Origin: Squalus acanthias
Taxonomy: Eukaryota
Assembly: GCA_030390025.1 (NCBI GenBank)
Contig: CM059431.1
Span: 142,230,001 to 142,294,000 of the forward strand
DNA: 64,000 nucleotides
Reading direction: 5' to 3'
The position numbers and the translations under genes were made by a program. The number at the start of each line of letters is the position of its first letter. Positions within the stretch are counted from its first letter, which is position 1. Positions 2,390 to 28,010 of the stretch are shown in pieces. A model generated the notes under the pieces. The model was given only the letters and a program-made list of their open reading frames with translations. It was not told where the DNA came from and made no database searches.

Positions 2390-4785
2390 ATGATGGTAGC
2401 CTTGAGGAGGAGTTCATAGAGTGTATCCGGGATGATTTCCTAGAACATTATATAATGAAACCAACCAGGGAGCAGGCTATCTTGGATCTGGTACTGTGCA
2501 ATGAGACATAATGAATAAATTATCTCATAGTAAAGGATCCTCTAGGAAAGAGTGATCATAGCATGGTTGAATTTCAAAGTCAGTTGGAGGGTGAGAAAGT
2601 TGTATCTCAAACCAGTGTCCTGATCTTAAACAAAGATGGCATGAGGGCAGAACTGGCTAAAGTGGACTGGAAAAATAAGTTAAAGGTAAGACAGTTGAAA
2701 TGCAGTGGTGGACATTTAAGGAGATATTTCATAACTCTCATCAAAAATATATTCCAGTGAGAAAGAAAGATTTTAAGAGAAGGGAGCACCATTCTTGGCG
2801 AACTAAGGAAGTAAAGGGTGGTATCAAATTGAAAACGAAGACATACAATGTTGCCAAGTTTGGTGGGAGGCCAGAGGATTGGGAATTTTTTAAAAACCAG
2901 CAAAGGATGACTAACAAATTAACAGAGAGAAGATGAATTATGAGAGTAAACTGGAAAGGAATATTAAAACAGATAGCAAGAGCTTCTACAGGTATATAAA
3001 AAGGAAGAGAGCAGCTAAAGTAAACGTTGGTCCCTTAGAGGATGAGACTGGGGAATTAATATAGAGGAACGGGGAAATGGCAGAGACTCTGAACAAATAT
3101 TTTGTATCTGTCTTCATGGTAGAAGACACTAACAACATCCCAATAATGGATAATCAAGGGGCCACAGGGAGGGGGAACTAAAGACAATCACTACCACTAA
3201 GGAAAAAGTAATTGCTGAAATAATGAGACTAAAAGACGACAAGTCCCCTGGACCAGATGGCCTGCATCCCAGGGTCTTAAAATAAGTGGCTGCAGAGATA
3301 GTGGTTGCAATATACCAAAATTCCCTGGTCTCTGGAGAGGGCCCAGCGGATTGGAAAACCGCAAATGTAACACCCCTATTTAAGAAAGGAAGGAGACAGA
3401 AAGCAGGAAACTATAGACCAGTTAGCCTAACATCTGTCATTGGGAAAACGCTGGAGTCCTTCATTAAGGAAGTAGTAGCAGGGCATTTAGAAAAACATAC
3501 TGCAGTCAAGCAGAGTCAGCATGGTTTTAGGAAAGGGAAATCATGTTTAACACATTTGCTGGAGTTCTTTGAGGATGTCACGTGCAGGGTGGACAAAGGT
3601 GAGCCAGTGGATGTGGTGCATTTGGATTTCCAGAAGGCATTCGACAAGGTGCCACATAAAAGGTTACTGCATAAGATAAGAGCTCACGGAATTGGGGGTA
3701 ATATATTAGCATGGATAGAGAATTGGCTAACTAAAATAAAGCAGAGAATCGGGATAAATGGTCCATTTTCCGGTTGGCAAACGGTAACTAGTGGGGTGCC
3801 ACAGGGATCGTTGCTGGGGCCCCAACTATTTACAATCTACATTAATGACTAGGATGAAGGGTCCAAGTGTAATGTAGCCAAGTTTGTGTATGATACAAAG
3901 ATGGGTGGGAAAGCAAGTTGTGCAGAGGACTCAAATAATCTGCAAAGGGATTATAGATAGGCTAAGTGAGTGGGCAAACATTTGGCAGATGGAGTATAAT
4001 GTGGGAAAGTGCAAGGTTATCCACTTTGGCAGGAAAAATAAAAAAGCAAATTATTATTTAAATGGAGAGAGATTGCAAAATGCTACAGTTCAGAGGGACC
4101 TGGGGGTCCTTGTGCATGAAACACAAAGTTAGCATGCAGGTACAGCAATTAATCAAAAAGGCAAATGGAATGTTGGGCTTTATTGCAAGGGGGTTGGAGT
4201 TAAAAAGCAGGGAAGTCCTGCTACAACTGTACAGTGTATTGGTGAGAGCACACCTTGAGTACTGCGTACAGTTTTGGTCTCCTTATTTAAGGAAGGATAT
4301 ACTTGCATTGGAGGCAGTTCAGAGACAATTCACTAGGTTAATTTCAGAGATGAGGGGGTTGACTTATGAAGAAAGGTTGAGCAGGTTGGGCCTTTACTCA
4401 TTGGAATTTAGAAGAATGAGAGGTGATCATAATGAAACATATAAGATACTAAGCGGACTCGACAAGGTAGATGCAGAGAGGATGTTTCCCCTCGTGGGAG
4501 TTTCAGAATAAAGGTCGCCCTTTTAGATCTAAGATGAGGAGGAATTTCTTCTCTCAGAGGGTTGTAAATCTGTGGAATTCTCTGCCCCAGAGAGCCGTGG
4601 AGGCTGGGTCATTAAATACATTTAAGGCGGAGATAGACAGATTTTTGCAAGATAAGGGAGTGAAGGGTTATGGGGAGCGGACTGGGAAGTGACTTTGAGC
4701 CCAAGATCAGCCATGATCTTATTGAATGGCGGAGCAGGCTCAAGGGCTCAAGTGGCCTATTCCTGCTCCTATTTCTTATGTTTTT
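2390..4785 (+). mobile_element. CR1-type LINE, 5'-truncated, decayed ORF2 (endonuclease end, RT, 3' UTR)
   Basis: NVTPLFKKG, NYRPVSLTS, QHGF, LDFQKAFDKVPH, GVPQGS, LEYCVQFWSP; many stops and frameshifts; tail ...cctgctcctatttcttatg. Confidence 0.95.
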
Positions 4786-7129: not shown

Positions 7130-8032
7130 CATCGGCCGCCCCTACACTCCCCGCCTGATATTCAGTCACATTATCGGCCCCTACATTCCCCGCCTGATGT
7201 TTAGTCCCATTATCGGCCGCCCTACACTCACCGCCTGATATTCAGTCCCGTTATCGGTCGCTCTACACTCACCGCCTGATATTCAGTCCCATTATCGGCC
7301 CCTACATTCCCCGCCTGATATTCAGTCCCATTATCGGCCCCTACAGTCCCCGCCTGATATTCAGTCCCATTATCGGCCCCTACACTCCCCGCCTGATATT
7401 CAGTCCCATTATCGGCCCCTACACTCCCCGCCTGATATTCAGTCCCATTATCGGCCCCTACACTCCCCGCCTGATATTCAGTCCCATTATCGGCCCCTAT
7501 ACTCCCCGCCTGATATACAGTCCCATTATCGGCCCCTACACTCCACGTCTGATATTCAGTCCCATTATCATCCCTACACTCCCCGCCTGATATTCAGTCC
7601 CATTATCGGCCCCTACATTCCCCGCCTGATGTTTAGTCCCATTATCGGCCGCCCTACACTCCCTGCCTGATATTCAGTCCCATTATCGGCCGCCCTACGC
7701 TCCCTGCCTGATATTCAGTCCCATTATCGGCCGCCCTACACTCACCGCCTGATATTCAGTCCCGTTATCGGTCGCCCTACACTCACCGCCTGATATTCAG
7801 TCCCATTATCGGCCCCTACATTCCCCGCCTGATATTCAGTCCCATTATCGGCCCCTACACTCCCCGCCTGATATTCAGTCCCATTATCGGCCCCTACACT
7901 CCCCGCCTAATATTCAGTCCCATTATCGGCCCCTACACTCCCCGCCTGATATTCAGTCCCATTATCGGCCGCCCGACGCTCCCCGCCTGATATTCAGTCC
8001 CATTATCGGCCCGACGCTCCCCGCCTGATATT
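7130..8032 (+). repeat. Minisatellite, 39-bp unit (42-bp variants) CTACACTCCCCGCCTGATATTCAGTCCCATTATCGGCCC, about 22 copies
   Basis: Directly visible; head-to-tail units with no unique spacers. Confidence 0.95.
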
Positions 8033-9345: not shown

Positions 9346-9415
9346 ATGCCCCCGGTGATGACCCTCACACTCCTGCTCTTCAGTGCCTCGTACCCGGCAA
9401 CATCCCAGCAATGCA
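9346..9415 (+). CDS. IF/TC-like exon 1: signal peptide MPPVMTLTLLLFSASYPATSQQC
   Basis: ATG with A at -3, hydrophobic stretch, first family Cys, donor A|gtaagt in phase 1 that fits exon 2. Confidence 0.75.
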
Positions 9416-11603
9416 GTAAGTGCGATTTGTTGTTTAGTGCCCAATGTTTAATCTAAACCTGATCTTTATCGTTTAGCTGAGTTTTTATCGTAATTTAGAA
9501 TCATAGAATTATAGAAACTTAGAATCTTATAGTACAGAAGGAGCCCATTCGGCCCATCGTACCTGCTCTTTGAAAGTGTAATTAGTCCCAGTCACCCTGC
9601 TCTTTCCCCAAAGCCCTGCATTTTTCTCCCCTCAAGAACACATCCAAACCCCTTTTGACAGTTACTATAGAAGATGCTTCCAGCACCGTTTCAGGGACTG
9701 CATTCCAGACAGCAACAACATCGCTGCATTCAAAAAATCTCCTCATTTACCCTCTGGTTCTTTTGCCAATTACCTTAAATCTGTGTGATCGCCAAGCTCC
9801 TGCCAGTGGAAGAAGTTTCTCCTTATTTACTCTATCAAACACCTCCATAATATTGATCACCTCTATTAAATCTCCCTTTAATACTCTCTGCTCTAAGGAG
9901 AACAACCCCAGCTTGTCTAGTCTCTCCACATAACTGAAATCTCTCATCCCTGCCAGCATTCTGGTAAATATCCTCTGCACCCTCTCCAAGGCCTTGACTA
10001 AAGTTTGTTGCCCAGAATTGGACACAATGCACTAACTGAGGCATAACTAATGATTTATAAATGTTTGCCACAAATTCTTTGCTTTTCTACTCTGTGCCTC
10101 TATTTGGAAAGCCAAGGATCCCGTCATTTTTTTTTTTAAGATTTGTCAATAAGTCCTTCCACCTTCAAAGATTTGTGAACGTGAACCCGAGGTCTCTCTC
10201 TTCCTGCGCCCCGAATACACTTGTACTATTTGGTTTCTATTACCTCTCCTCATTCTTCTTTCAAATTGCACCATTTCAGATTTTTCTGCATTGAATGTCA
10301 TCTACAATGTGACTGCCCATTGCACCAGTCTGTCTGTGTCCTCCTGAAGTCTGCTACTATCCTCCTCACTGTTTACTACAATACATGTTCTTACTGTATG
10401 TTCATATGTTATGTTCACCGGCCACATGCGCCTTCTGATTATCCTCAAGCTCTTTAAGTGTTACTGCTATCTTAATGTTCATTACTCGCGAGTGGATTAA
10501 TAATTGGGTTGTGGATTCCAGCGGCTCCAGATAATCAGCAGAAATCACTTCTCCGGAGTATAGAGAGGAAACTGAGTGATCTGTCCGTGGAGCCAGACCC
10601 CGGGGCTTTCATTGCCCTGCGCCTGGGGAGTGAGCATGATCTGCAGAGTGAACAAGACATTCTCCGAAGGCTGAGTGAGGCGGCTGTTAGAAAGGTTGGA
10701 TCAGGTAAGGAGTCATCTATTAGGTAATGTGGATGTATCTGGATTAAATCTTTATTACTGTTGACAGGATGAGTGGCTGGCAAACTATTGTTCATGAAGG
10801 AAATTTGAATCTAGGAATGGCCCCATGATAATAGTGACCCAACTTCTAGCCCTTTCATGTCGTATTTCTATGTTTGACATCAAAACGTAACATTTGAGAT
10901 AGAGTTTAAGTGTAATTTGAGACTTTACACATGGTCAGTGTAGCGTGCTTGGGAGGAACAGGTGATTTTGGACCTATGGTTCACAAAGCTCTCCAGCACC
11001 GGATATTCCTCGCCTCGTGTCTGTGTCTGTTGTAAACTAATTTATAGAGACTGATTACTATGATTATACAACAACCCCATTGTCATGCGACTACAAGGAT
11101 AGTAGAAGCAGAATTAGATGCACCTTGGTCTTTAGTCTCCCCAGAAATTCCAATGTTCCGAATAGAGGATTTCGTCCATTTAAAATAAACAGGGTCATTT
11201 AAAAATAACAACTAATATGACTGTCGATGGCGCCTATTTTGTGAGAGCCAATGTTGAAAGTTGACACACCTCATGCAATTCTACATCTTTTCCCCAGTGC
11301 AGTTCACTTTATTACAGTCTACAATTTCACAACCATTTGAATCAGGATCCCAGGGATTAACTTGCTGCAATGTGCCATTGAATTTTCTGTATATGTTTGC
11401 GTGTGTTTGTGTGTATATGTTTATGTGTGTGTGTGTTTCCATGTTTCTTTGTGTATATCTTTCTGTGGGTTTCTTTGCGATTGTGTGTGTGTATGTCTAT
11501 GCGTTTCTTTGTGTCTCTGCTTCTGTATGCATATGTGTTTCTGTGTGTGTATACGTGTCTGTTTGTGTTTATATGTGTATGTGTGTGCATATATATCCGA
11601 GTC

Positions 11604-11636
<33 letters not shown>

Positions 11637-14600
11637 TTGAGAAAGAGAAAGAGTGAGATGGAGAAAGAGGGAAACAGACACATACAGAGGAAGATGAAGA
11701 GAGGGAGGGAGGGAGACTTCTCGCTGGAATTCTGCCCTCAGGTGAATGGGCCGAGCTGACATTTCTTGCACCACCTTTGTTCCTGATACTATGATGGGAA
11801 TTTTAGCAGCTCTAAACATTCCCTTGTTCTTCCACCTGAACCCTATATCCCCCATCCTGCACGGTGGTTCTGCTTCTTGCTCTCTCGTTGTTTTGAAAAC
11901 AGAAATCGTTACACTGTCCCCTGCTCGAAATTGCATTAGCTGCCCTTTACACCATGCTTGATTTTTCTTTCCAATGCAGGTGAAAATCGGGCGGGATCTT
12001 TAATCGGCGGCCTAATCGGAGTCGCCTATTTTACAACATCGTTTAAATCTAAAATTATCCCCAGAATCTTTTCTTGTGGAATTTGAAGATGACACCGCTT
12101 TATTGGAACAAGAAGGGAGAGTGCTGCCAGGGTCTTGGCCAACATTTATTCCCCAGCTAACACCTAAAGTAGTTTAAAGAGAGAGGAGAGTGAAGGGGAA
12201 GAAACTTACATTTCTCTTGTGCAGTTGTTTCACAGCCAATGAAATGCAGCCACTCTTCTTTCATAGACAACCTCGACAACCAATTGGACACAAGATGTCA
12301 CAAGTACCAATGAGATACATAACCAGTTAATCCATGTACCGTGTCGCTGGTTAAGAATTTAGAACTGGTTACCTGGCTATTCACTTCTTTGCTGTTTGTG
12401 GGATATTGCTGTCCACAAAATGGCTCCAGAATTGGTCGATATAACAAGGGTGTCTGCACTTCAAATAATGTATTACACGTGAAGCACTTTGAGTCGTTTT
12501 TGAGAGTTAAAATGAGGTGGAATATTAATACAAGTCTTCAGAGTGCAGAGGAGGGATTTATAATCACAAACCAGTTAGGTATTGATGTACCCAGTCAGAA
12601 CAAACTGAATCTCGTTTGTTCCTCTGCCGCCAGGTGAACACTTCCCCATAGACCAGTTGGTTTTATTCATCTTAGCCTTCAGATCCTCTTGTCGGAACTC
12701 AGCCAAGATATCAGCAGAGAACAAGGAGGTGAATTTGGTGGAGGTGCTACGTGAGAGGCTCTACAGTGAACTGCATCAAATACCTAGGATAACAACTTCT
12801 AAAGGTAAGTTTCGACTCATGCTTTAGGCATGTTATTTGCACAGAGATTGAGATGCATCTTTCAGCAAACACAAGCTGAAAACCACCAATCACACTCACA
12901 TCTCAGTCTGTACCTCTCTCCATAACCAGGAATTACACTCCCATCTCAGTCTGTATCTCTCTTCATAACCAGGAATCACACTCACATCTCAGTCTGTACC
13001 TCTCTCCATAACCAGGAATCACACTCACATCTCAGTCTGTACCTCTCTCCATAACCAGGAATCACACTCACATCTCAGTCTGTACCTCTCCACATAACCT
13101 CCAATCACACTCACATCTCAGTCTGTACCTGTCTCAATAACCAGGAATCACACTCACAGCTCAGTCTGTACCTCACCCCATAACCTCCAATCACACTCAC
13201 ATCTCAATCTGTACCTCTCCCCATAACCTGGAATCACACTCACATCTGAGTCTGTACCTCTCCCCATAACCAGGAATCACACTCACATCTCAGTCTGTAC
13301 CTCTCTCCATAACCTACAATCACAGTCACATCTCAGTCTGTACCTCTCTCCATAAACTTCAATCAAACTCACATCTCAGTCTCTACCTGTCCCCATAACC
13401 AGGAATCACACTCACATCTCAGTCTGTACCTCTCTCCATAACCTCCAATCACACTCACATCTCAGTCTGTACCTCTCTCCATAACCAGGAATCACACTCA
13501 CATCTCAGTCTGTACCTCTCTCCATAACCTACAATCACAGTCACATCTCAGTCTGTACCTCTCTTCATAAACAGGAATCACACTCCCATCTCAGTCTGTA
13601 CCTCTCTCCATAACCTCCAATCACACTCACATCTCAGTCTGTACCTCTCTCCATAAACAGGAATCACACTCCCATCTCAGTCTGTACCTGTCCACATAAC
13701 CTCCAATCACACTCCCATCTCAGTCTGTACCTGTCCCTATAACCTCCAATCACACTCACATCTCAGTCTGTACCTGTCCCCATAAACTCCAATCACACTC
13801 ACATCTCAGTCTGTACCTGTCCCCATAACCTCCAATCACACTCACATCTCAGTCTGTACCTGTCCCATAACCTCCAATCACACTCACATCTCAGTCTGTA
13901 CCTGTCCCCATAAACTCCAATCACACTCACATCTCATTCTGTACCTGTCCCCAAAACCTCCAATCACACTCACATCTCAGACTGTACCTCTCTCCATAAA
14001 CTCCAATCACACTCACATCTCAGTCTGTACCTGTCCCCATAATCTCCAATCACACTCACATCTCAGTCTGTACCTCTCTCCATAAACTCCAAACACACTC
14101 ACATCTCAGTCTGTACCTCTCTCCATAACCAGGAATCACAATCACATCTCAGTCTGTACCTCTCTCCATAACCTCCAATAACACTCACATCTCAGTCTGT
14201 ACCTCTCTCCATAACCTCCAATCACACTCACATCTCAGTCTGTACCTCTCTCCATAACCTCCAATCACACTCCCATCTCAGACTGTACCTCTCTCCATAA
14301 CCTCCAATCACACTCCCATCTCAGTCTGTACCTCTCTCCATAACCTCCAATCACACTCCCATCTCAGTCTGTACCTGTCCCCATAACCTCCAATCACACT
14401 CCCATCTCAGTCTGTACCTGTCCCTATAACCTCCAATCACACTCACATCTCAGTCTGTACCTGTCCCCATAAACTCCAATCACACTCACATCTCAGTCTG
14501 TACCTGTCCCCATAACCTCCAATCACACTCACATCTCAGTCTGTACCTGTCCCCATAAACTCCAATCACACTCACATCTCATTCTGTACCTGTCCCCAAA

Positions 14601-17600
14601 ACCTCCAATCACACTCACATCTCAGACTGTACCTCTCTCCATAAACTCCAATCACACTCACATCTCAGTCTGTACCTGTCCCCATAATCTCCAATCACAC
14701 TCACATCTCAGTCTGTACCTCTCTCCATAAACTCCAAACACACTCACATCTCAGTCTGTACCTCTCTCCATAACCAGGAATCACAATCACATCTCAGTCT
14801 GTACCTCTCTCCATAACCTCCAATCACACTCACATCTCAGTCTGTACCTCTCTCCATAACCTCCAATCACACTCACATCTCAGTCTGTACCTCTCTCCAT
14901 AACCTCCAATCACACTCCCATCTCAGACTGTACCTCTCTCCATAACCTCCAATCACACTCCCATCTCAGTCTGTACCTCTCTCCATAACCTCCAATCACA
15001 CTCCCATCTCAGTCTGTACCTGTCCCCATAACCTCCAATCACACTCACATCTCAGTCCATACCTCTCTACATAACCTCCAATTACACTCACATCTCAGTC
15101 TGTACCTCTCTCCATAACCAGGAATCACACTCCCATCTCAGTCTGTACCTGTCCCTATAACCTCCAATCACACTCACATCTCAGACTGTACCAGTCCCTA
15201 TAAACTGCAATCACACTCACATCTCAGTCTATAACTGTCGCTATAACATCCAATCACACTCACATCTCAGTCTATAACTGTCGCTATAACATCCAATCAT
15301 ACTCACATCTCAGTCTGTAACTTTCGCTATAACATCCAATCACACTCACATCTCAGTCTGTAACTGTCCCTATAACCTCCAATCACACTCACATCTCATT
15401 CTGTACCTGTCCCTATAACCTCCAATCACACTCCCATCTCAGTCTGTACCTGTCCCTCTAACCTCCAATCACACTCACATCTCAGTCTGTACCTGTCCCT
15501 ATAACCTCCAATCACACCCAATCTGTATTTCCCGCCATAACCTCCAGCCTCATTCTCACCTCATTCTGCTTTAATCGCAACAATTTCCGGGTCTATTCCC
15601 ATAACAGTCGGCGGCTCCCCATAACCTCCAATCCCACTGCCTTCTCAGTTCATAACTGTCCCTGTAAACACCAATAGAATTACTTTCACAGTTTGTATCT
15701 CTCACCATAACCTCCAATCCCACTGCCTTCTCAGTTCATACATGTCCCTGTAAACACCAATAGAATTACTCTCACAGTTTGTATCTCTCCCCATAACCTC
15801 CAAACACATTAAAGTGCAAATATTTATCCAGCACTTTTTAAAAGAACCAATTGACTCCAGGCCTAAAGGGAAATGGAATGCTGACTCCTGGTTTATAAAG
15901 GCAATGATTTATGATTATATCAGTGAAATAAAACCCTTGTAGCATGTATTTATTCATCTATTATTATCTATGTTATTTATCAAGAAAGGCTGGAGTCGCT
16001 GGGGCTCTTTCATCTGGAAAAGAGATGATTGAGAAGTGAGCTAACAGAGCTCTTTAAAATGATGACGTGTTTCTACAGGGTAGAAGTAGAGTAGATGTTT
16101 CCACTTGTAGAGGAGATTATAATTAGGGACCATAAATATAAGGTAGTCGATACTTCTTCTTTCGTATGGTAGTAGCAAAGCAAATCCAATGTCAATATCT
16201 AAATCAGATATCAATGCCAAAAATTCCAGTATAACAGCGTGGATTTCTTACAACGAAGGTTCACCAGACTGGTTCCTGGGATGGGGGGATTGTCCTATGA
16301 CGTCTGATTGACTAGACTAGGACAATATTCTCTAGAGTTTAGAAGAATGAGAGATGATCTAATTGAAACATGCACAATTCTTACAGGGCTTGACTGGGTA
16401 GATGTAGGGAGGATGTTTCCCCTTGCTGGGGAGTCCAGAACCAGGGGTCACAGTCTCAAAATAAGGGGTCTGCCATTTCGGACTGAAATGTGAAGAAATG
16501 TCTTCACTCAGAGGGTGGCGAATCTTTGGAATTGGCTGAGTCGTTGAGTACATTCAAGACAGAGATCGATAGATTTTTGAATATTAAGGGAATCAAGAGA
16601 TATGGGGATAATGCAGGAAAGTTGAGATGAGGTAGATGTACAGCAAAAATCTTATTGAATTGTGGAGCAGGCTCGAAGAACCAAATGGCCTAATCCTGCT
16701 CCTATTTCTTATGTTCTTATTTATGCTGCCTACGAATTTCCTCTGAGGGCAGTGCTCAATGCTGTTCTCCAGGGTCTGATTAGGAGCTTCACAGTCTGTC
16801 TCATGATGGGGATGTTTTAATCTTCCATCTAATTAGAAGGTGGCGACCGGTTCTGAGGCGGTTGATGGTTGTCCACTGTTTGCGAGGAAGGTTTGATCCT
16901 TCAGGTTGTACTCTGGGATCCTCTATAAGCAATCCATTCCGTACGTCACAACGTTTCCAAGCATTTCGCCATCAGTCATCAAGGCTGAGGGGAGATCGCT
17001 GAAGGGCTTTGGCGACGGTCCAATATAGCCTTCTAGATTAGAGACGGTTTGGTGCTAGATTGTTCAAGTCGGCCTGGATTGGCATGTCTTTGCTTGTGTA
17101 GCGGTTGTATTCTATGGACACTGCATATTCGCGGCTTAGGTGTGGTGGTGTGATGTTTGCAAGCACGGGCAGCCAAGGTGTTGGTGTCGATAAAAGTGTA
17201 CTGGTGATAATTCTCATAGTAGAATTCAGCTGGACATCATCGGATTTGTCATGTGTACATGATAGCCATGCCGGAGAGCATTAGTCCGCTGCAGAGTCAC
17301 TACTAAAAAACAATGGGGGATTCAGGAGAAACTTATTTTCCCGAAGAGTGGCGAGAATGTGGAAATTGCTAACACATGAGAAGTTGAGGCGAATTGTATA
17401 GATGTATTTAAGGCGAAGTTAGACAAGTTCATGAGGGAGAAAGGAATAAGCTCCCTCGGGTAAGCTGCTCGACTGAGATGAAGTAAGGTAGGAGGAGGCT
17501 CATGTGGAGCATAATTAGACCTGTTGGGCCGAATAGCCTCCTTCTGTGCTGTAAATTCTACACCAATTCTATTTATTCATTTAAATCCTTGGCCTGATTT

Positions 17601-20600
17601 CTGGCACACAGAGAGGATCGGGGACGAACTAGTGAGGAATTCTCATATCTGTAGCTCCCGTTTGTCAGATGTGGAGCATATCACTAAGATTGGAGACTGT
17701 CACTGTATTTACAGAAAACGCTGGATATTCTCTAAAGGCCTTTACTGAAGCCAGCCTGGCGATCCTGGCGCTGTGTCAGGAGGAGGAACCTGTCCCGGGC
17801 TTTCTCATTCATAATTTCATCCGGGCTCATCTCAGGAAGATCGCTCATCACGGGAAAGAATTAACAGTAGGTATGTCTGAGCAGACAAGATGTTTCATTT
17901 TATAGTTTCAAAAATATCCATTTGATGGAGTTTTTAAAGAGGTTACCTGGGTTCACAGGTTACGGTCGGTGAAGATATCTATTTGATGGAGTTTTGAAAG
18001 CGTTTACCCGGGGGGTTCAGAGGTTACGGTTAGTGAAGATATCCATTTGATGTAGTTTTGAAAGAGGTTACCTGAGTTCACAGGTTACGGTCGGTGAAGA
18101 CATCCATTTGATGGAGTTTTAGAAAGAGGTTACCGGGGTTCACAGGTTATGGTCGGTTAAGATATATATTTGATGGAGTTATAGAAAGAGGTTATCTGGG
18201 TTCACAGGTAACGGTCAGTGAAGATATCCATTTGATGGAGTTTGGAAAGAGGTTAGCTGGGTTCACAGGTAACGGTCAGTGAAGATATCCATTTGATGTA
18301 GTTTTGAAAGAGGTTACCTGAGTTCACAGGTTACGGTCGGTGAAGACATCCATTTGATGGAGTTTTAGAAAGAGGTTACCTGGGTTAACAGGTTACGGTC
18401 GGTGAAGATATCCATTTGGTGGAGTTTTGAATGAGGTTACCTGGGTTCACGGGTTACGATTGGTGAAGATATCCATTTGGTGGAGTTTTGAATGAGGTTA
18501 CCTGCGTTCACCGGTTACGATTGGTGAAGATATCCATTTGATGGAGTTCTGAAAGAGGTTACCGGGGTTCACAGGTTACGGTCGGTGAAGATATCCATTT
18601 GATGCAGTTTTGAAAGAGGTTACCTGTGTTCACAGGTTACAGTCAGTGAAGATATCAATTTGATGGAGTTTTGAATGAGGTTAGCTGGGTTCACGGGTTA
18701 CGGTCGGTGAAGATATCCATTTGATGCAGTTTTGAAAGAGGTTACTGGGTTCACCGGTTACGATTGGTGAAGATATCCATTTGATGGAGTTCGGAAAGAG
18801 GTTACTTGCGTTCACCGGTTACGATTGATGAAGAGTGCTGGGAGGGAGTCCATTGGACACAGGTTGTGAGGAAAATGATGGGAAATTTGGGAAGCGTCTC
18901 TTCATCCATGGGTGATCGAATCGCTTGTGCATGGGAGGCTTCGGATATCATAGAATCATCTAAACTTATAGAAGGAGGCCTGTTGGCCCATCGTACCTGT
19001 GGTGGCTCTTTGAAATAGCTCCCCAATTAATCCACTCTCCCTTCTCTTTCCCCATAGGCCATAACCCTGTATTTGTATCCTTATCAAGTATATATCAAAT
19101 TTCCTTTTCAAAGTCACCATTGAATCTGCTTCCATCACCCGTTCAGGCAGTGCATTCCAGATTATAACAACTCGCTGTGTAAAAAAGCAAAAATGACTCC
19201 CCATCTCCCCTCAGATTCTTTTGCCAATATCGTACATCTGTGTCCTCTCGTTACCGACCCTCCTGTCAAATTTACTCCATGAACCGATGGTAATTGTTTC
19301 CTGTGTTGTAGATACAATGGCCACCGCGGCACTTAGTCTGAGGTGTTTGATACACTCGCAACAACCAAGAGGCAGATCTCGGCTTGACATCGCAAAGGCT
19401 TTAATGTGGATAATGAGGCGGATTCTAAGTGAAGTGAGAGAGGACGGGACCATTGGGAGCTTGAGCAGTACAGGGCTGGCCATGCAGGTATTGTGATGTG
19501 AAATTAGAAAATAGGATTCTGATTTAATTAGAGCTAAGGGCAGTTAGTAATTAACAGCTTCTTCACAACATATTAAGCGATAGACCTTAAACAATTAGAG
19601 CATAGAAACGATTTTGCAGTATTGGTGTATCGGTGTTTAATGTGTTCAGATGACGTTCAGTGTGAAGTATTGCAAAATACATCCTAGGGGAAGATTCTGA
19701 GACACCTCGATATCTTTCATGGGATAGAACTCGCCAGGAGCGGAGGGCATTGGTTGAAATAGATTTAAGGGGTGATTTTAACGTTTGGTGAAGGTGTAAA
19801 ATGGGTAATATCCAATTGCTCTTCAATTTACAGGCGCCAGATTTTACCTTCCATGGATTCAATGCAAAGGAAAATCGGGCATGCTATACAATGGCCGGTT
19901 AATTCAAAATTGGCCATTGTACATCATCGCTCACAGTTAAAGTAATCACAACAGAATGCGAATGATTCAATGTTCATCAAATCAATACACTGAAGTGGCG
20001 ATAAACAATGTAAACTGGATGTTGAGTTATATTGAGAAACTGGTTGACTTCAAATTCCAAGAGGACAATCTTAAATGGAATGTTCAGTACAGAAACAGGT
20101 CATTCGTGTGTTTGTGGGCCACACGAGGCTCCTCCCGCCCTACTAACCCTATCACCATATCCTTCTATTCCTTTCTCCTTCATATATATTTCCCTTAAAT
20201 CAATCTTTGTTATTCGCTTCCTATGCTACTCCTTGTGATAGCGAGTTACAACTTCTATCCACTCTCTAGTTAAGAAGTTTCTCCTAAATTCCTTGTTGGG
20301 TTTATGAGTGGCTATCTTATATGTATGGACCCTAGTTTTGGACTCACCCTGCAAGTGGAGACATCTTCTCTACGTTTACCTTATGAAATCCATTCATAAT
20401 TTTGAAGAGCTCTTTTAGTTCACCTTTCAGTAATAGAATCATAGAGTAATAGATTCATAACGGCACAGAACGAGGCCATTCGGCCCATCGAGTCCATGTC
20501 GGCTCTCTGTAGAACATCCAGTCAGTCCCATTCCCCCGCTCCATCCCCGTAGCCCTGCAAGTTTATTCCATCAAGTGCCTACCCAGTCTCCCCGTGAAAG

Positions 20601-23600
20601 CATTGAGTGTCTCCGCTTCCACAACTTTCGTCGGCAGCGAATTCCAGGTCTTCGCCACTCGCCGCATAAAAAATGTTTTTCCTCACATCCCCCATTGTAC
20701 CTCTTGCACAAAACCTTAAATCTTTGTCCCCTAGTCCTTGTACCATCAACTAGTGGGATAAGCCCTTCCCCGTCTAGCCTATCCAAACCCGTCATAATCT
20801 TGTAAATCTCCATCAAATCATCCCTCAACCTCCTTTGCTCTAATGAAAACAAATCCAACTTCTCCAAACTGTCCTTGTAGCTAAGATACCCCATCCCCGG
20901 AACCATTATGGTAAATCTCCTCTGCATTCTCTCAAGGTCCTTCATATCCTTCCTAAACTGTGGTGACCACAACTGGATGCAACACGCAAGTTGTGCTCTA
21001 ACCAGCGCTTCAAAGAGGCTGAGCATAACTTTTCTACTTTTGTACTCAATACCTTTATTTATGACATTGGCATTGCTAACCACTCTCTCAATATGTCCTG
21101 CCACCTTCAGGGAACTATGACATTAACTCCCACGTCCCTGGGTCACTGCACACTCTTTAAGGTGTAAAACGGGTGATGGCGAATCTGCAGCCCGATCTCT
21201 CCCGATTTTTATTTCCATTCACTCCCACTTTATATTACAGTGCTTTAAAACAGAGTTCATATGTGCTCAGACTAAATGATCTCCGGATCACTAAAATTAA
21301 ATATTAAAATTAGTGTTACCTTCTTTACACTCCAGGCCCTGGACGAAAACATAAACGTGTTCACCTCACGTGTCTATAATTGCACCAAATCTGTGCAGAA
21401 AATGGTGCATGAAATTTCTCGGGGAAACTGGGAAAACCTTACAACAATGTCACAGGTGGCGATAGCCCTGGGAGGAAAGAGTTACCTGGACGTGAACAAG
21501 ATAACCTGTCCTGTATATAAAGGTAAGGGTACAGCAACAGACCGGACTAAGTATGAGGGACGGTGAAATTCGACATTGGCGAGTTCGCAAAACGTACGGT
21601 GTTGCATCAGGCGTCCGATATCCGCTCCGCCCCATATTCGGTCCCATTGACTTCAAAAGAACTGGATATCGGGCGTGTCCATAATGGTTGGTGAGAGCGA
21701 TTCCTCCTGTCTCGCGTCCCCATCCTTATCGAATTTCACCACGCCTCTCAGCTTTAAGAACTCCCTAGGCGGGGTTAATAAGGGAGAATGTGGCGGGAAG
21801 GTTACACGGCCCGAACAAAAACTGCAACGAAAATAACGGAAGGAAAATCGGGCAGGTTTCGTTCCCAGAATGCAAAGCTCAGCTCCAGAATTTCCTGGAT
21901 GCGCTGCTCCCAGGCTGTACAGATGGGAAGCTACTCACATTGGGTTAGGAATCAAAATGAAGAAGAAATAGCAAATGGAAATGAATCCTGGAAGGATAGA
22001 GTGTAGAATGAGGCCATTCGACCCATAGTGCCTGTGTCGGCGCTTCGAAAGAGCAATCCAATTAGTTCCAGTGCCCTGCCCTCTCCCCATAGCCCTGCAG
22101 TTTTCCTCTAGAAATATTTATCCGAATCCCCTTTGAAAGTTACTATTGAATCTGCTTCCACCCCACTTTCAGTCAGTGCATTCCAGATCTTAACAATTCA
22201 TCGTTGTTAGTTTTAAATCACTGTCCAGTTTCATTATATTTTCTCCAGGGTATTTGCTAGGAGCACTGAAGCGGGGATTTTACCCATTCAACCCTTGACC
22301 TTCCTGAATCCTTTATGTTTGCTCAGTTTTCTAAGCGAAATAATTGGAAGCCCTGAGCCATCTGCTTGGCCTCACTCCCAGCGGGAGGTTCACCAATGTA
22401 GATATCCTCAGGGATCCTCACATATGACAATGGTCACATTAACTGGAATGCAGAGCTGGTTTGTGCCTGAGCTCCACTTTTCACAGGCGCTGATTTTGAG
22501 CGTGTCTCTAGAAGTTGTGGGTGAAATTGGACAAGTGCAAAGGCGCAAAACAGGCGTTATGTCATCGGTCTCCCGTTTCTTTCTTTATAAACCCCGATAT
22601 TCATTCCACTATTTCCAACAGAACCGGATATCAGGCGTGTTGCAAAACGGCTGGCAAATGCGATTCTCCCTGTTTTCCATCTTTGCCCAAGTCCAACTTT
22701 ACTGCCCGTTGCCTCCCATGATCTTTTGACATTGTTTCTCCTACTTCGCACAGTGACAACTATGACCAGAGCGCATTCCCCGACCAATGGGCTGCCGACG
22801 CTCACCGAATCCCAGAATCCACTTTCTCTCAACTCCAGGATTGTGAACCACCGCATCAAAAGTACAACCACGTCCATGAGAAGTTCAACTGCGCCTCGAT
22901 CGCACATTCACCCTGCATCAATGGAAACCTCCTCTTCACTTGGTAGAGCAGGTCCACACCCCAGTTCAACAGCACAGCCTCCAACTTCTACATCATCCTT
23001 AGGGGCTTTCAGTTTATCCACAATTATGGATTCTTGGATCAGTGTGATTGCGCCCTTCATGACCAGTGTGACCATGTCCATCGTGACCAGTACGATGGCA
23101 CCCGTCATGAACAGTGCGACTCTGCCTATCATGACCAGTCAGATTTTGCCCATCGTGAGCAGTGAGACTGTGCCCATCGTGACCAGTGAGACTCTGCCCA
23201 CCGTGAGCAGTGAGACTGTGCACAACGTGATCACTGAGACTGTCCCCATCGTGACCAATGAGACTCTGCCCATCGTGACCAGTGCGAGTGTGCCCATCGT
23301 AACCAGTGAGACTGTGCCCATCGTGATCAGTGAGACTGTGCCCATAGTGACCAGTGAGACTTTGCCCATCGTGACTAGTGAGACTGTGCTCATCGTGACC
23401 AGTGAGCCTGTGCCCATAGTGACCACTCAGACTGTGCCCATCGTAACCAGTGAGACTGTGCCCATCGTGATCAGTGAGACTGTGCCCATCGTGACCAGTG
23501 AGACTGTGCCCATCGTGACCACTGAGACTGTGCCCATCGTGACTAGTGAGACCGTGCCCATCGTGACCAGTGAGACTGTGCCCATCGTGACCACTGAGAC

Positions 23601-26600
23601 TGTGCCCAGCGTGACTAGTGAGACCGTGCCCATCGTGACCAGTGAGACTGTGCTCATCTTGACCACTGAGACTGTGCCCATCGTAACCAGTGAGACTGTG
23701 CCCATCGTGACCAGTGAGACTGTGCCCATCGTGACCACTGAGACTGTGCCCATCGTGACTAGTGAGACCGTGCCCATCGTGACCAGTGAGACTGTGCTCA
23801 TCTTGACCACTGAGACGGTGCCCATCGTAACCAGTGAGACTGTGCCCATCGTGACCAGTGAGACTGTGCCCATCGTAACCAGTGAGACTGTGCCCATCGT
23901 GACCAGTAAAACTGTGCCCCTCGTGACCAGTGAGACTGTGCCCATCGTGACCAGTAAAACTGTACCCCTCGTGACCTATTGACACTGTCCCCATCGTGAC
24001 CAGTGAGACTTTGCCCATCGTGACAACTGAGAATGTGCCCATCGTGACCACTGAGACTGTGGCCATCGTGACCAGTGAGAATGTGCCCATCGTGACAAGT
24101 GAGACTTTGCCATCGTGACCACTGAGAATGTGCCCATCGTGACCACTGAGACTGTGGCCATCGTGACCAGTGAGTCTGTACCCATCGTGGCCAGTGAGAC
24201 TGTGCCCGTCGTGACCACTGAGACTGTGCCCATCGTGACCAGTGGGACTCTGCCCATCGTGAACAGTGAGACTCTGCCCATCGTGACCACTGAGACTGTG
24301 CCCATCGTGACCAGTGAGACTGTGCCCATCGTGAACAGTGAGACTGTGCCCATCGTGACCACTGAGACTGTACCCCTCGTGACCAGTGAGACTGTGCCCA
24401 TCGTGAGCAGTGCGAGTGTGCCCATCGTGACCAGTGAGACTGTGCCCATCGTGAACAGTGAGACTGTGCCCATCGTGAACAGTGAGACGGTGCCCATCGT
24501 GACCAGTGAGAATGTGACCATCGTGACCAGTGAGACTCTGCCCATCGTGACCAATGAGACGGTGCCTATCGTGACCAGTGAGAATGTGCCCATCGTGACC
24601 AATGAGACGGTGCCCATCGTGACCGGTGAGAATGTGCCCATCGTGACCAGTGAGACTGTGCCCATCGTGACCAGTGAGACTGTGCCCATCGCGACAAGTG
24701 AGACCGTGCCCATCGTGACCAGTGAGACTGTGCCCATCCTGACCAGTGAGACTCTGCCCATCGTGACCAGTGAGACTGCGCCCATCGTCATCAATGAGAT
24801 TGTGCCCATCGTGACCAGTAAAACTGTGCCCCTCGTGACCAGTGAGACTGTGCCCATCGTGACCAGTAAAACTGTGCCCCTCGTGACCAGTGAGACTGTC
24901 CCCATCGTGACCAGTGAGACTGTGCCCATCGTGACCAGTGAGACTGTGCCCATCGTGACCAGTAAAACTGTGCCCCTCGTGACCAGTGAGACTGTGCCCA
25001 TCGTGACTAGTAAAACTGTACCCCTCGTGACCATTGACACTGTCCCCATCGTGACCAGTGAGACTTTGCCCATCGTGACAACTGAGAATGTGCCCATCGT
25101 GACCACTGAGACTGTGGCCATCGTGACCAGTGAGAATGTGCCCATCGTGACAAGTGAGTATTTGCCCATCGTGACCACTGAGAATGTGCCCATCGTGACC
25201 ACTGAGACTGTGGCCATCGTGACCAGTGAGTCTGTACCCATCGTGGCCAGTGAGACTGTGCCCATCGTGACCAGTGGGATTCTGCCCATCGTGACCAGTG
25301 GGAATTTGCCCATCGTGAACAGTGACACTCTGCCCATCGTGACCAGTGAGACTGTGCCCATCGTGACCACTGAGACTGTGCCCATCGTGACCAGTGGGAC
25401 TCTGCCCATCGTGAACAGTGAGACTCTGCCATCGTGACCACTGAGACTGTGCCCATCGTGACCAGTGAGACTGTGCCCATCGTGAACAGTGAGACTGTGC
25501 CCATCGTGACCACTGAGACTGTACCCCTCGTGACCAGTGAGACTGTGCCCATCGTGAGCAGTGCGAGTGTGCCCATCGTGACCAGTGAGACTGTGCCCAT
25601 CGTGAACAGTGAGACTGTGCCGATCGTGAACAGTGAGACTGTGCCCATCGTGACCAGTGAGAACGTGACCATCGTGACCAGTGAGACTCTGCCCATCGTG
25701 ACCAATGAGACGGTGCCCATCGTGACCAGTGAGAATGTACCCATCGTGACCAATGAGACGGTGCCCATCGTGACCGGTGAGAATGTGCCCATCGTGACCG
25801 GTGAGACTGTGCCCATCGTGAGCAGTGCGAGTGTGCCCAGACTGACCAGTGAGACTGTACCTATCATGAGCAGTGCGAGTGTGCCCAGCTTGTCCAGTGC
25901 GAATGTGCCTCCGTCTTCTAACAAGGTAAAGGCCCCATCATCGACCGAAAACAACAATGTGTTTCCACCCTCCCTGACAGGTAGAACCATGCAACAGTCA
26001 TCAGCTGTCACTATGAGACCAATGCTGCTTCCGGCTTTACATTCAGCATTGACATTAACTTTTGCAGTGTCTAAAAAATCCCAGGTCAGTGCTAGAGTCC
26101 GTTCATCATCTATAAAGCAGACTACTCCATCCCAGGTGAATACAGCACCATCGACCTCTATAAATCAGACTACACCATCCCAGGTCAATACATCACCATC
26201 ATCGTCTATAAAACAGACTACACCATCCCAGGTCAATACAGCGCCATCATCATCTATAAATCAGACTCCACCATCCCAGGTCAATACAACACCATCATCA
26301 TCTATAAATGAGACTCCACCATCCCAGGTCAATACAGCACTATCATCATCTATAAAGCAGACTACTCCATCCCAGGTGAATACAGCACCATCGACCTCTA
26401 TAAATCAGACTACACCATCCCAGGTCAATACATCACCATCATCGTCTATAAAGCAGACTACACCATCCCAGGTCAATACAGCACCATCATCATCTATAAA
26501 TCAGACTACACCATCCCAGGTCAATACAGCACCACCATCATCATCTATAAATCAGACTACAATATCCGAGGTCAATACAGCACCATCATCATCTATTAAT

Positions 26601-26753
26601 CAGACTACACCATCCCAGGTCAATACAGCATCATCATCATCATCATCTATAAATCAGACTACAACATCCGAGGTCAATACAGCACCATCATCATCTATTA
26701 ATCAGACTACACCATCCCAGGCCAGTACAGCACCATCATCATCTATTAATTAG
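9346..26753 (+). CDS. 7-exon gene: intrinsic factor/transcobalamin-family alpha domain fused to a long mucin-like PTS region (~314 aa + ~1330 aa if three 1-nt indels in the repeat exon are corrected)
   Basis: Exons 9346-9415, 10522-10704, 12634-12804, 17715-17870, 19312-19487, 21336-21522, 22754-26753. All introns are GT-AG, with phases 1,1,1,1,0,1 matching on both sides. Motifs SSC, SLAILALCQ, DTMATAALSLRC, GTIGSLSSTGLAMQAL and MSQVAIALGGKSYLDV..ITC parallel human intrinsic factor (SLAILALCQ, DTGAMATLALTC, GIIGDIYSTGLAMQAL, SIAQILPSLKGKTYLDV..VTC). Orthology among CBLIF, TCN1 and TCN2 is unresolved. Confidence 0.85.
9497..10380 (-). mobile_element. CR1 3' fragment in intron 1
   Basis: LERVQRIFTRM, LGLFSLEQR, CVQFW on the minus strand; (atagaatc)n tail. 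Confidence 0.88.
10522..10704 (+). CDS. IF/TC-like exon 2 (APDNQQKSLL...PDPGAFIALRLGSEHDLQSEQ...)
   Basis: ttccag acceptor and G|gtaagg donor; PDPGAFIALRL resembles the family NPS.LIA(M/L).L motif. Confidence 0.88.
11385..11710. repeat. Degenerate (TG)n followed by GA-rich simple repeat
   Basis: Directly visible. Confidence 0.9.
12634..12804 (+). CDS. IF/TC-like exon 3 (EHFPIDQLVLFILAFRSSCRNS...)
   Basis: ccgccag acceptor, open frame, G|gtaagt donor; matches family GQL.L.I.AL.SSC.DP; not in the ORF track. Confidence 0.88.
12885..15540 (+). repeat. Minisatellite, 43-bp unit CACACTCACATCTCAGTCTGTACCTCTCTCCATAACCTCCAAT, about 60 copies, in intron 3
   Basis: Directly visible; accagg and acctcc variants. 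Confidence 0.95.
16149..17296 (-). mobile_element. Vingi/Ingi-like LINE 3' fragment, itself interrupted by a CR1
   Basis: Minus-strand peptide SAAD*CSPAW...DVQLNSTMRIITSTLLSTPTPWLPVLANITPPHL; tail ccatacgaaagaagaag. Confidence 0.7.
16250..16722 (+). mobile_element. CR1 3' fragment nested in the Vingi-like element
   Basis: YSLEFRRMRDDLIET, ESRTRGHSLKIRG; tail cctatttcttatgttcttat. Confidence 0.9.
17715..17870 (+). CDS. IF/TC-like exon 4 (AFTEASLAILALCQEE...)
   Basis: tttacag acceptor and G|gtatgt donor; SLAILALCQ identical to intrinsic factor. Confidence 0.9.
17915..18832 (+). repeat. Minisatellite, ~61-bp unit ATCCATTTGATGGAGTTTTGAAAGAGGTTACCTGGGTTCACAGGTTACGGTCGGTGAAGAT, about 15 copies, in intron 4
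   Basis: Directly visible. Confidence 0.95.
18945..19270 (-). mobile_element. CR1 3' end
   Basis: FFTQRVVIIWNALPE on the minus strand; catagaatcat tail. Confidence 0.8.
19312..19487 (+). CDS. IF/TC-like exon 5 (DTMATAALSLRCL...DGTIGSLSSTGLAMQ)
   Basis: ttgtag acceptor and CAG|gtattg donor; contains the DT..A.L.L.C and STGLAMQ family signatures. Confidence 0.92.
20060..21160 (-). mobile_element. Two adjacent CR1 3' fragments
   Basis: LERMQRRFT, LDLFSLEQRRLRDDL; second tail at ~20432. Confidence 0.82.
21336..21522 (+). CDS. IF/TC-like exon 6 (ALDEN...YNC...MSQVAIALGGKSYLDVNKITC)
   Basis: ctccag acceptor in phase 0 and G|gtaagg donor; end of the alpha domain. Confidence 0.92.
21562..21740. 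mobile_element. Palindromic MITE-like element
   Basis: Perfect 12-bp terminal inverted repeat GGTGAAATTCGA...TCGAATTTCACC; central ccattgacttcaa. Confidence 0.7.
22754..26753 (+). CDS. Exon 7: giant mucin-like Ser/Thr/Pro exon with (VTSETVPI)n and (SSSINQTTPSQVNTAP)n; contains three 1-nt indels
   Basis: Polypyrimidine tract plus cacag acceptor ending at 22753, in phase 1 with exon 6. ORFs 22726-23982, 24115-25437 and 25434-26753 join after correcting +1 at 23977, -1 near 24110 and -1 near 25430. Stop TAG at 26751-26753. Confidence 0.75.
23140..25860 (+). repeat. Coding tandem repeat, 24-bp unit GTGACCAGTGAGACTGTGCCCATC (VTSETVPI), roughly 110 copies
   Basis: Directly visible in the sequence and in the ORF translations. 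Confidence 0.95.
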
Positions 26754-26760
26754 GCTACAC
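26100..26760 (+). repeat. Coding tandem repeat, ~48-bp unit (SSSINQTTPSQVNTAP), about 13 copies
   Basis: Visible in ORF 25434-26753. Confidence 0.9.
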
Positions 26761-26979
26761 TATCCCAGTTCAGAATAGTACCACTCTCATCCACTAATCA
26801 GTCTACAGCACTCCAGATCAGTATTACAGCACGTTCATCATCTCTAAGTCAGGCTACATCATTCACAGGCCAGTAGAGAAGCAGCTTCATCATCTATTGA
26901 TTCGGATACATCTTCTCTCAATTTCAATAGCACCTCACTATATTTCAGCATAGATTCTTCTTCCCTGATGAGAAGAATA

Positions 26980-27735
26980 GCACCTTCACCATCTTCTAAA
27001 TCAGATACATCTTCTCTGGTCAGTTCAATAACACCTTTACCATCTACTAAATAAGATACACCTTCTCTGGTCAGTACAATAACACCTTCACTATCTACTA
27101 AATTAGATACATCTTCTCTGGTCAGTACAATACCACCCTCACCATCTACTAAATCAGAAACATCTTCTCTGGTCAGTACAATAACACCTTTACCTCTACT
27201 AAATCAGATACATCTTCTCTGGTCCGTACAGTAGCACCTTCACCATCTACTACATGAGATACATCTTCTCTGGTCAGTACAATAACACCCTCACCATCTA
27301 CTAAATCAGATACATCTACTCTGGTCAGTACAATAGCACCTTCACCATCTACTAAATCAGATACATCTTCACTGGTCAGTATAATAACACCCTCACCATC
27401 TACTAAATCAGATACATCTTCTCTGGTCAGTACAATAACACCCTCACCATCTACTAAATCAGATACATCTTCTCTGGTCAGTACAATAGCACCTTCACCA
27501 TCTACTAAATCAGATACATCTTCTCTGGTCAGTACAATAACAGCCACAATATCTACTAAATCAGATACATCTTCTCTGGTCGGTACAAAAGCAGTTTCAC
27601 CATCTACTAAATTAGATACATCTTCTGTGGTCAGTACAATAACAATCTCACCTTCTACTAAATTAGATACATCTTCTCTGGTCAGTACAATAACAATCTC
27701 ACCATCTACTAAATCAGATACATCATCTCTGGTCA
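26980..27735 (+). repeat. 51-bp tandem repeat (PSPSTKSDTSSLVSTIT-like), about 14-15 copies, degenerate, downstream of the stop
   Basis: Unit length is a multiple of 3; Ser/Thr-rich frame broken by TAA (~27052), TGA (~27255) and a frameshift. Confidence 0.85.
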
Positions 27736-27933: not shown

Positions 27934-28010
27934 AATAAACTATTAGTTTCTCCTTATATAACCAAAGTTTCAGTTTTGAAATACAACATGATAAACTATA
28001 TTAAAATAAA
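27934..28010 (+). promoter_or_regulatory. Candidate polyadenylation signals (AATAAA at 27934 and 28005) for the IF/TC-mucin gene
   Basis: Hexamers just 3' of the last repeat block, but in AT-rich DNA where chance matches are common. Confidence 0.35.

Follow-up and report, generated by a model that had tools for sequence, protein, structure and literature searches.

Structure of the window gene

A window of 64,000 nucleotides (nt) from the Squalus acanthias genome (3.71 Gb) was analysed, C7:142230001-142294000. Positions are given within this window unless a contig is named. On the plus strand the window carries a gene with six exons for an alpha domain of the intrinsic factor (IF) and transcobalamin (TC) family, and a seventh exon that runs into tandem repeats. 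The features are as follows.

9346-9415, plus strand: exon 1, with the ATG, a hydrophobic leader MPPVMTLTLLLFSASYPATSQQC and donor GTAAGT, phase 1; 95-100% identity in nine paralogues
10522-10704, plus strand: exon 2, alpha domain, PF01122 profile positions 21-80
12634-12804, plus strand: exon 3, alpha domain, PF01122 profile positions 90-128
12881-15524, no strand assigned: 43-nt satellite, 61.5 copies, in intron 3; the period is not a multiple of 3
17715-17870, plus strand: exon 4, PF01122 profile positions 125-181; KAFTE at the family TNYYQ site
19312-19487, plus strand: exon 5, PF01122 profile positions 178-242; phase 0 at its end
21336-21522, plus strand: exon 6, PF01122 profile positions 239-301; donor GTAAGG, phase 1, after the conserved Cys, 4 codons and 1 nt
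21523-22753, plus strand: intron 6, ending in TTGTTTCTCCTACTTCGCACAG; AG retained in 15 of 17 copies
22754-23982, plus strand: exon 7, the part open in the phase of exon 6 (junction codon, 408 codons and stop)
23064-25915, plus strand: 24-nt array of 119 units, reading SETVPIVT
23976-24119, plus strand: out-of-frame stretch from the +1 unit (23976) to the -1 unit (24097), with six stops
25416-25438, plus strand: 23-nt unit with a frameshift (CCC to CC), which splits the open reading frame (ORF) 24103-25437 from the ORF 25422-26753
25910-26102, plus strand: non-repeat spacer, open in the frame of both flanking arrays
26103-26862, plus strand: 48-nt array, 15.6 copies, SSSINQTTPSQVNTAP; its stop (26751-26753) is shared with an intact copy (c05, below)
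26976-27735, plus strand: 51-nt array, 14.9 copies, SDTSSLVSTITPSPSTK; beyond the stop, with two in-frame stops and frame changes
27934-28005, plus strand: first AATAAA (27934) and ATTAAA (28000) downstream of the acceptor of exon 7

All five acceptors of exons 1-6 were AG, all six donors were GT, and the phases were consistent. Together these exons sum to 943 nt (314 codons plus 1 nt) free of stops. Single ORFs were used as input for a Pfam scan (131 plus-strand ORFs of 9-28 kb). The cobalamin-binding profile PF01122 was found on the ORFs of exons 2-6 in profile order, covering positions 21-301 of 317, with E-values from exon 2 to exon 6 of 4.5e-4, 2.8e-4, 1.2e-3, 1.5e-12 and 9e-11; the other ORFs gave 0 matches. 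The six phase-consistent exons and the IF/TC alpha domain of an initial annotation, made from the sequence alone, were thereby confirmed. In the family alignment all six Cys of the window head fall in family Cys columns. On visual reading the leader is hydrophobic, and it lines up with those of family members; the putative signal peptide is called on these grounds.

When exon 5 alone was compared with the PDB, it retrieved chains of haptocorrin, transcobalamin and intrinsic factor. The nearest protein is P0001, a Mustelus asterias model named 'cobalamin binding intrinsic factor-like', which was also the sole product of the word-index protein searches. Its identity to the window head is 58-81% per exon and 72% over 287 columns. 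The fold was tested on this homologue rather than on the window protein. P0001 itself matched PF01122 with an E-value of 1.3e-49, and the top 15 PDB matches of its AlphaFold model (predicted local distance difference test score 85.4) were all IF, haptocorrin or TC, with E-values from 4e-11 to 2.5e-8.

The initial annotation had joined the phase-1 donor at 21522 to an acceptor at 22753/22754, and here the phases fit: with the acceptor TTCGCACAG/TG, the frame that exon 6 leaves in phase 1 carries on. At the junction the window and Mustelus (KVQ, then stop) have V and a relative from Narcine (see below) has M, which fits x/TG. As a side observation, P0001 ends in ...CPTYKVQ and a stop, two codons beyond the exon 6 boundary and with the same junction V as the window.

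In contrast, the open frame of about 4 kb described from 22754 is interrupted in the window copy. It meets stops at 23980, 24004, 24028, 24052, 24076 and 24100, opens again at 24103 and is lost from 25435. The plus-strand ORFs are separate, 22591-23982 and 24103-25437 in the same frame and 25422-26753 in another, and as assembled the spliced product would have 723 aa. The frame is broken because of three 1-nt indels among the 119 repeat units, one insertion in the unit at 23976 and one deletion (CCC to CC) in each of the units at 24097 and 25416. When the 24-nt array (119.6 copies at 23040-25909) was cut into units, 115 of the 119 had 24 nt, one had 25 nt and two had 23 nt. All three indels lie inside one or other copy of a recent internal duplication of the array (23880-24688 against 24936-25839). 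Apart from the indels, 12 substitutions and one 96-nt block distinguish the two copies of this duplication. If the indels are errors, the frame would run to the stop at 26751-26753 and give a product of about 1,650 aa. The window copy is either a young decaying copy, or its indels are assembly errors.

There is no AATAAA between 22754 and 27933. Since the 51-nt array holds two more frame changes and two in-frame stops and the first AATAAA follows at 27934, this array is probably a 3' untranslated part. Two further satellites were noted, one of 61 nt (15 copies, 17914-18834) in intron 4 and one of 39 nt (22.6 copies, 7138-8032) upstream of the gene.

The place of the tail was compared with a canonical alpha-plus-beta cobalamin-binder gene of the same genome, at G000:C1824:75891-111673 (plus strand), which is 52-67% identical per exon to a full-length Heptranchias protein. 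Its exon 6 ends in phase 1 with the conserved Cys, 4 codons and 1 nt, as in the window gene, and its exon 7 encodes the linker (...PPVTQAVPI...) and the start of the beta domain. Because the exon 6 donor matches in place and phase, the repeat tail occupies the position of the linker exon, as had been supposed. More fragments of the family were seen on C1824 (147-201 kb), C474 and C12.

Copies of the gene in the genome

Paralogues were counted with a 464-nt probe spanning the exon 7 acceptor. The probe found at least 17 places, the window included, at 92-100% identity (16 full length, 1 partial). The gene is thus not a singleton, and most of its copies are damaged. Exon 6 copies of the window gene lie at 137.8-143.7 Mb of C7 and on small contigs. 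Exons and introns of the paralogues are 93-100% identical to the window; among the youngest copies the two are about equally conserved (98-100%). The span from acceptor to spacer, mostly the 24-nt array, varies from 0.9 to 4.9 kb across copies, and the array of c06 exceeds 6.4 kb, reaching the end of the sequence fetched.

An uninterrupted repeat frame, absent from the window copy, was found in c05, 1.6 million bases away. This copy has six intact alpha exons with canonical splice sites, the exons being 98-100% identical to those of the window. Its exon 7 stays open across the 24-nt and 48-nt arrays and the spacer that separates them. The predicted protein has 2,197 aa, its head and the window head differ at 2 residues, and no membrane anchor was found in it (no 20-residue stretch with at least 16 hydrophobic residues). 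The open length of exon 7 in each copy was as follows.

c05 (G000:C7:140619152-140638308, minus strand): 1,882 codons, to the ...SSSIN stop as at 26753
c07: 1,384 codons
c06: 1,365 codons, then a frameshift
c10: 1,072 codons; nonsense
L034: 1,035 codons; without exon 6 upstream
c03: 1,025 codons
c01: 783 codons
c11: 581 codons; acceptor TG
Window copy: 408 codons
c04: 312 codons
c08: 309 codons
c02: 280 codons
L031-L033: 128 codons; without exon 6 upstream
c09: 60 codons; acceptor TG
L030: 4 codons (TTMT, then stop)

The open frames of c07, c03 and c01 pass the spacer. A stop-free head of 943 nt is present in eight copies (the window and c01-c07). The head is disrupted in exon 3 of c08, by a frameshift, and in exon 2 of c10, and the first conserved Cys is lost in c03 and c04 (C23Y). 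Of 12 copies examined for the exon 6 donor, 9 have retained it; c02 has GG, c09 and c11 have TT. Whole in all respects tested are c05, c07 and c01, and also c03 save for C23Y, hence 4 of 17. The proposed build of head plus repeat tail accordingly holds at the level of the family, where c05 is whole and Narcine has the same build; it fails for the window copy, the tail of which is broken.

Residues 95-96 in exon 3 vary among the copies: L95 F96 in the window, F95 Y96 in 8 of the 9 other copies compared and Y95 H96 in c07. The wider family mostly keeps Tyr at the position of residue 96 (consensus ALYxLAL).

The alpha exons are under purifying selection. For the head, the ratio of nonsynonymous to synonymous substitution rates (dN/dS) was 0.18-0.34 in 15 pairs with dS of at least 0.084. 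Between two sub-families dS was about 0.084-0.105 and dN about 0.017-0.035; therefore the head was constrained after their split. The mean over 21 pairs with dS above 0.02 was 0.36, and values near 1 were obtained among the youngest pairs, which have few changes.

The copies lie inside a cluster of class-A G protein-coupled receptor (GPCR) genes, which is a very large lineage-specific receptor expansion. The window holds one of these as an intronless ORF at 33466-34209 (plus strand; 7tm_1, E-value 3e-14), cut short at 248 aa; its nearest solved chain is GPR139, matched weakly (E-value 5e-7). Across the genome 4,527 first-look candidates of this receptor family were found, at 137-154 Mb of C7 and on many small contigs. 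The 150 of these that were scored all had E-values below 1e-103 and 68-100% identity, and were mostly open over 310-370 aa.

Relatives of the head and absence of the beta domain

A HMMER search with P0001 returned 86 proteins. The second best was Narcine bancroftii XP_069792302.1, a computer model of 993 aa named 'mucin-2-like'. Its alpha domain spans residues 80-365. Behind it lie about 630 aa of diverged repeats, rich in S/T/P/V and with motifs of the LPVVTE/LSVVSE type, and there is no DUF4430, the beta-domain family (PF14478). A hypothetical protein of Chiloscyllium punctatum, GCC19399.1, combines alpha fragments with a similar tail, although its exon 5 is out of frame and the model is poor. 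Compared with shuffled tails, the SETVPIVT frame scored z 9.2-10.3 against Narcine and z 6.6-7.5 against Chiloscyllium, and 0 of 100 shuffles scored as high. For the remaining five array frames z was 4.7 or below. The unique start of exon 7 reached z 4.2 against the Chiloscyllium tail and showed no similarity to the Narcine tail (z 0.24). A gene on the minus strand of the arrays was also considered and rejected: its frames are open, but they have no Pfam match, no similarity to the orthologous tails (z at most 4.7) and no exon context. A word-index protein search with the c05 tail returned three unrelated low-complexity proteins only.

The proposed family phylogeny was built from 42 alpha domains. 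The window gene groups with Mustelus and Narcine in a clade with full support in the Shimodaira-Hasegawa-like approximate likelihood ratio test (SH-aLRT 100); its stem is 0.9 changes per column long. Its sister group (SH-aLRT 92) consists of a Pristiophorus and a Hypanus model, both without a beta domain. Alpha-only elasmobranch models include those of Mustelus (330 aa), Hypanus (320 aa), Cetorhinus (301 aa) and Heptranchias (329 aa). P0001 itself looks like a copy with exon 7 cut short at once, as in L030.

The three mammalian B12 carriers are two-domain clamps. Among 44 family proteins scanned, DUF4430 was present in 24 and absent in 20, and several shark and ray models are alpha-only. No DUF4430 was found in 271 plus-strand ORFs of 9-42.7 kb, and a tblastn search of the whole window with 94 family proteins gave no beta match, only exons 2-6 and repeat matches. 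No beta exon was recovered at any of the 17 paralogue loci, with the canonical C1824 locus as a positive control (E-value 1.7e-26). A whole-genome scan with PF14478 gave no match at an E-value of 0.01 or below, such a scan being weak for a small, intron-split domain; indeed, the canonical beta exons of the genome were recovered by the protein query alone and were missed by the profile scan. A downstream beta exon past the arrays was rejected as well: the search there was negative, and from 33466 a GPCR ORF follows on the same strand.

The head was also inspected at the corrin contact. The TNYYQ motif of the alpha domain is described in PMC4350170 as hydrogen-bonding to the corrin ring. At this site the window has KAFTE, Mustelus KTFNE and Narcine KVLTE; most of the other 22 aligned members are TNYYQ-like. 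A 7-residue insert ahead of the site occurs only in the window, Mustelus and Narcine. Because a beta exon is missing and TNYYQ is replaced, the window protein is, from its sequence, unlikely to be a classical B12 carrier, and the carrier role raised in the initial annotation is weakened accordingly. Most likely the head has lost the classical cobalamin clamp and would serve another binding or structural role.

The family can be set beside several known systems. Like IF, TCN1 and TCN2 (PF01122 plus DUF4430), its members have a putative signal peptide, a six-Cys alpha6/alpha6 head and the same exon 6 boundary and phase. Unlike them, they are without the beta domain, have TNYYQ replaced, are multi-copy and carry 0.8-1.9 thousand repeat codons in place of the linker exon. 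The Narcine protein shares the clade, the junction, the S/T/P/V-rich tail and the lack of DUF4430; its tail is shorter (about 630 aa), with diverged repeats as opposed to a young 24-nt array. In Heterodontus francisci XP_067874885.1 (P0009, CBLIF-like, 450 aa) the linker between alpha and beta contains a P/T/S/L-rich repeat of the TLPSPNL type, about 70 aa long (residues about 270-340). This protein keeps a beta-like C-terminal part and belongs to another clade, and no similarity was seen between its linker and the tail of the window gene (z -0.8 to 0.3). It is an independent case, and therefore the linker can expand in sharks.

For cartilaginous fishes, the sections consulted of Lopes-Marques et al. 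2014 (PMC4350170) describe only Tcn1/Gif, Tcn2 and Tcn3. The little skate Tcn3 is likewise a highly divergent family member confined to elasmobranchs; by the description given there, it has both alpha and beta domains. The short teleost Tcn-like proteins of the tcnba type (DUF4430 only), outlined in the same source, are likewise a single-domain split of a two-domain binder, but what they retain is the other half (beta), they lack a repeat tail and they belong to another lineage. No description of an alpha-plus-repeat protein was found in the literature searched. The statement that no such architecture has been described thus stands for the literature searched, whereas the databases do hold unnamed computer models of it.

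With the secreted mucins rich in proline, threonine and serine (PTS), the family shares one large repeat exon with 42-49% S+T+P (0.47-0.49 in the window ORFs, 0.42 in c05), a putative signal peptide, and a repeat length that varies strongly between copies (0.9 to more than 6.4 kb). It differs from these mucins in a V+I content of 27-30% and in a head derived from a vitamin carrier. Pfam found no VWD, CK, SEA or transmembrane parts in 9-42.7 kb.

Interpretation and alternative readings

We favour, at a probability of roughly 60%, an elasmobranch-specific multi-copy family with an alpha head and a giant repeat exon, in which the clamp has probably been lost and the tail of the window copy is broken. 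The product would consist of a signal peptide, an alpha6/alpha6 barrel and one giant terminal exon of S/T/P/V/I-rich repeats. This exon would replace the linker-plus-beta exons, and the product would contain neither a membrane anchor nor any further known domain. Once transcribed, such a gene would give a secreted, probably O-glycosylated, mucin-like protein with a head derived from a B12 binder, and this head would no longer be expected to bind B12. The gene would be an old elasmobranch paralogue, older than the split of sharks and rays, and would have been amplified and eroded by segmental duplication within the very large GPCR cluster, decaying copy by copy.

Several observations weigh against this reading. 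In this genome dN/dS was 1.01 for the 102 unique exon 7 codons and 0.74 for the spacer, which gives no constraint at the protein level. The array has no excess of third-position changes (55 deviations at codon position 3, 62 at position 1 and 95 at position 2), and of 200 codon deviations 43 were synonymous, compared with 26% expected. Stop-making changes are not depleted: at the sole position where one substitution can create a stop, 6 changes from G to T (stop-making) and 12 from G to C were counted. One hint of constraint came from the internal duplicates, where 6 of 12 substitutions were synonymous third-position changes against 26% expected, in small numbers. Near-neutral change is usual in repeat domains that are selected for composition, and non-coding DNA would look alike; the selection tests on the tail gave no clear signal either way. 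The composition is also less mucin-like than that of classical PTS domains, with S+T at only 31-36% and V+I at 27-30%. Repeats of the APIVTSEE type occur in unrelated proteins as well (a bacterial lipoprotein-like protein and others), so that such a motif can arise independently. The Narcine and Chiloscyllium proteins are computer models, and exon 5 of the latter was misread. Transcript evidence was not obtained: four runs, none recorded as RNA, were mapped over 19200-23060 and covered just transposon parts (20.1-21.1 kb and 22.0-22.3 kb), together with an unspliced 153-nt contig of run X1 at 22615-22767. Finally, 13 of the 17 copies are damaged in the head, the splice sites or the tail.

Some of these points would follow if the gene were alpha-only, the arrays being non-coding minisatellites, in a 3' untranslated or an intergenic position, that are open by chance and the fused models artefacts of gene finders that read on through open repeats. 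We regard this as unlikely, though as the strongest of the alternatives. It would account for an array without codon-position signal and for a dN/dS of about 1 over the unique exon 7 codons. It also agrees with the many elasmobranch models that lack a tail (Mustelus, Hypanus, Cetorhinus and Heptranchias) and with the flaws of the Chiloscyllium model. The 24-nt unit is open in one of three plus frames (SETVPIVT) and in all three minus frames, and a minus-strand ORF (948 aa, 23014-25860) is the longest in the region; with four of six frames open, openness by itself says little. Moreover, once one frame of a young array is open it maintains itself, which makes long ORFs weak evidence. Against an alpha-only gene stands the need for a terminal exon, as the canonical phase-1 exon 6 donor persists in 9 of 12 copies. 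The Mustelus model splices on two further codons with the same junction V. The unique exon 7 codons are open in 11 of 12 copies and the spacer in 8 of 11. The three arrays (24, 48 and 51 nt) all have periods that are multiples of 3, which the 43- and 61-nt intron satellites do not. The approximately 630 codons of non-identical, diverged repeats in Narcine are free of stops, which is not expected of a neutral stretch.

A true corrinoid handler is improbable in our estimate. Here a mucin-tethered alpha domain would act in trans with a separately encoded beta domain, in B12 uptake or in withholding B12 from microbes. In favour of trans-assembly, separate TC-alpha and TC-beta, and IF fragments likewise, assemble only with cobalamin according to PMC5599065, and beta-only (DUF4430) Tcn-like genes are noted for teleosts in PMC4350170. 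The head of the family has also retained its fold and three disulfides under purifying selection. However, TNYYQ is replaced in all three members of the clade, with the 7-residue insert before the site, and the stem of the clade is long (0.9). No beta exon lies in or near the 17 copies, the PF14478 genome scan, weak as it is, was empty at an E-value of 0.01 or below, and canonical alpha-plus-beta genes elsewhere (C1824) can serve as the carrier.

It is equally improbable that all copies, c05 included, are dead by-products of segmental duplication and that function resides only in an ancestral gene or in other species: the damage to 13 of 17 copies, the like conservation of exons and introns in the youngest copies (98-100%) and their dN/dS near 1, with few changes, point that way, but the head dN/dS of 0.18-0.34 between sub-families, the eight copies, window included, with a stop-free 943-nt head and the four whole copies speak against it.

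Should the favoured multi-copy family be real, a nutrient carrier would have been re-used as the head of a mucin-like protein and multiplied to at least 17 copies. It would add a branch to the history of the B12-binder family in cartilaginous fishes and a new head domain to mucin biology. The many alpha-only shark and ray models named 'CBLIF-like' or 'transcobalamin-like' may be truncated at a masked repeat exon. Two versions of a role are highly speculative, even when their chances are taken together. In one, the products might be mucus-anchored binders of small ligands, co-amplified with the giant family of orphan class-A GPCRs as a shark counterpart of odorant- or pheromone-binding proteins. 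In the other, the heads might dock a free beta domain only with a corrinoid, tethering B12 or its analogues in mucus as a form of nutritional immunity.

Elsewhere in the window, RVT_1 fragments of elements resembling long interspersed nuclear elements were found at 3286-3849 (plus strand) and 46975-47574 (minus strand), the sole Pfam matches among 108 other ORFs of at least 75 aa.

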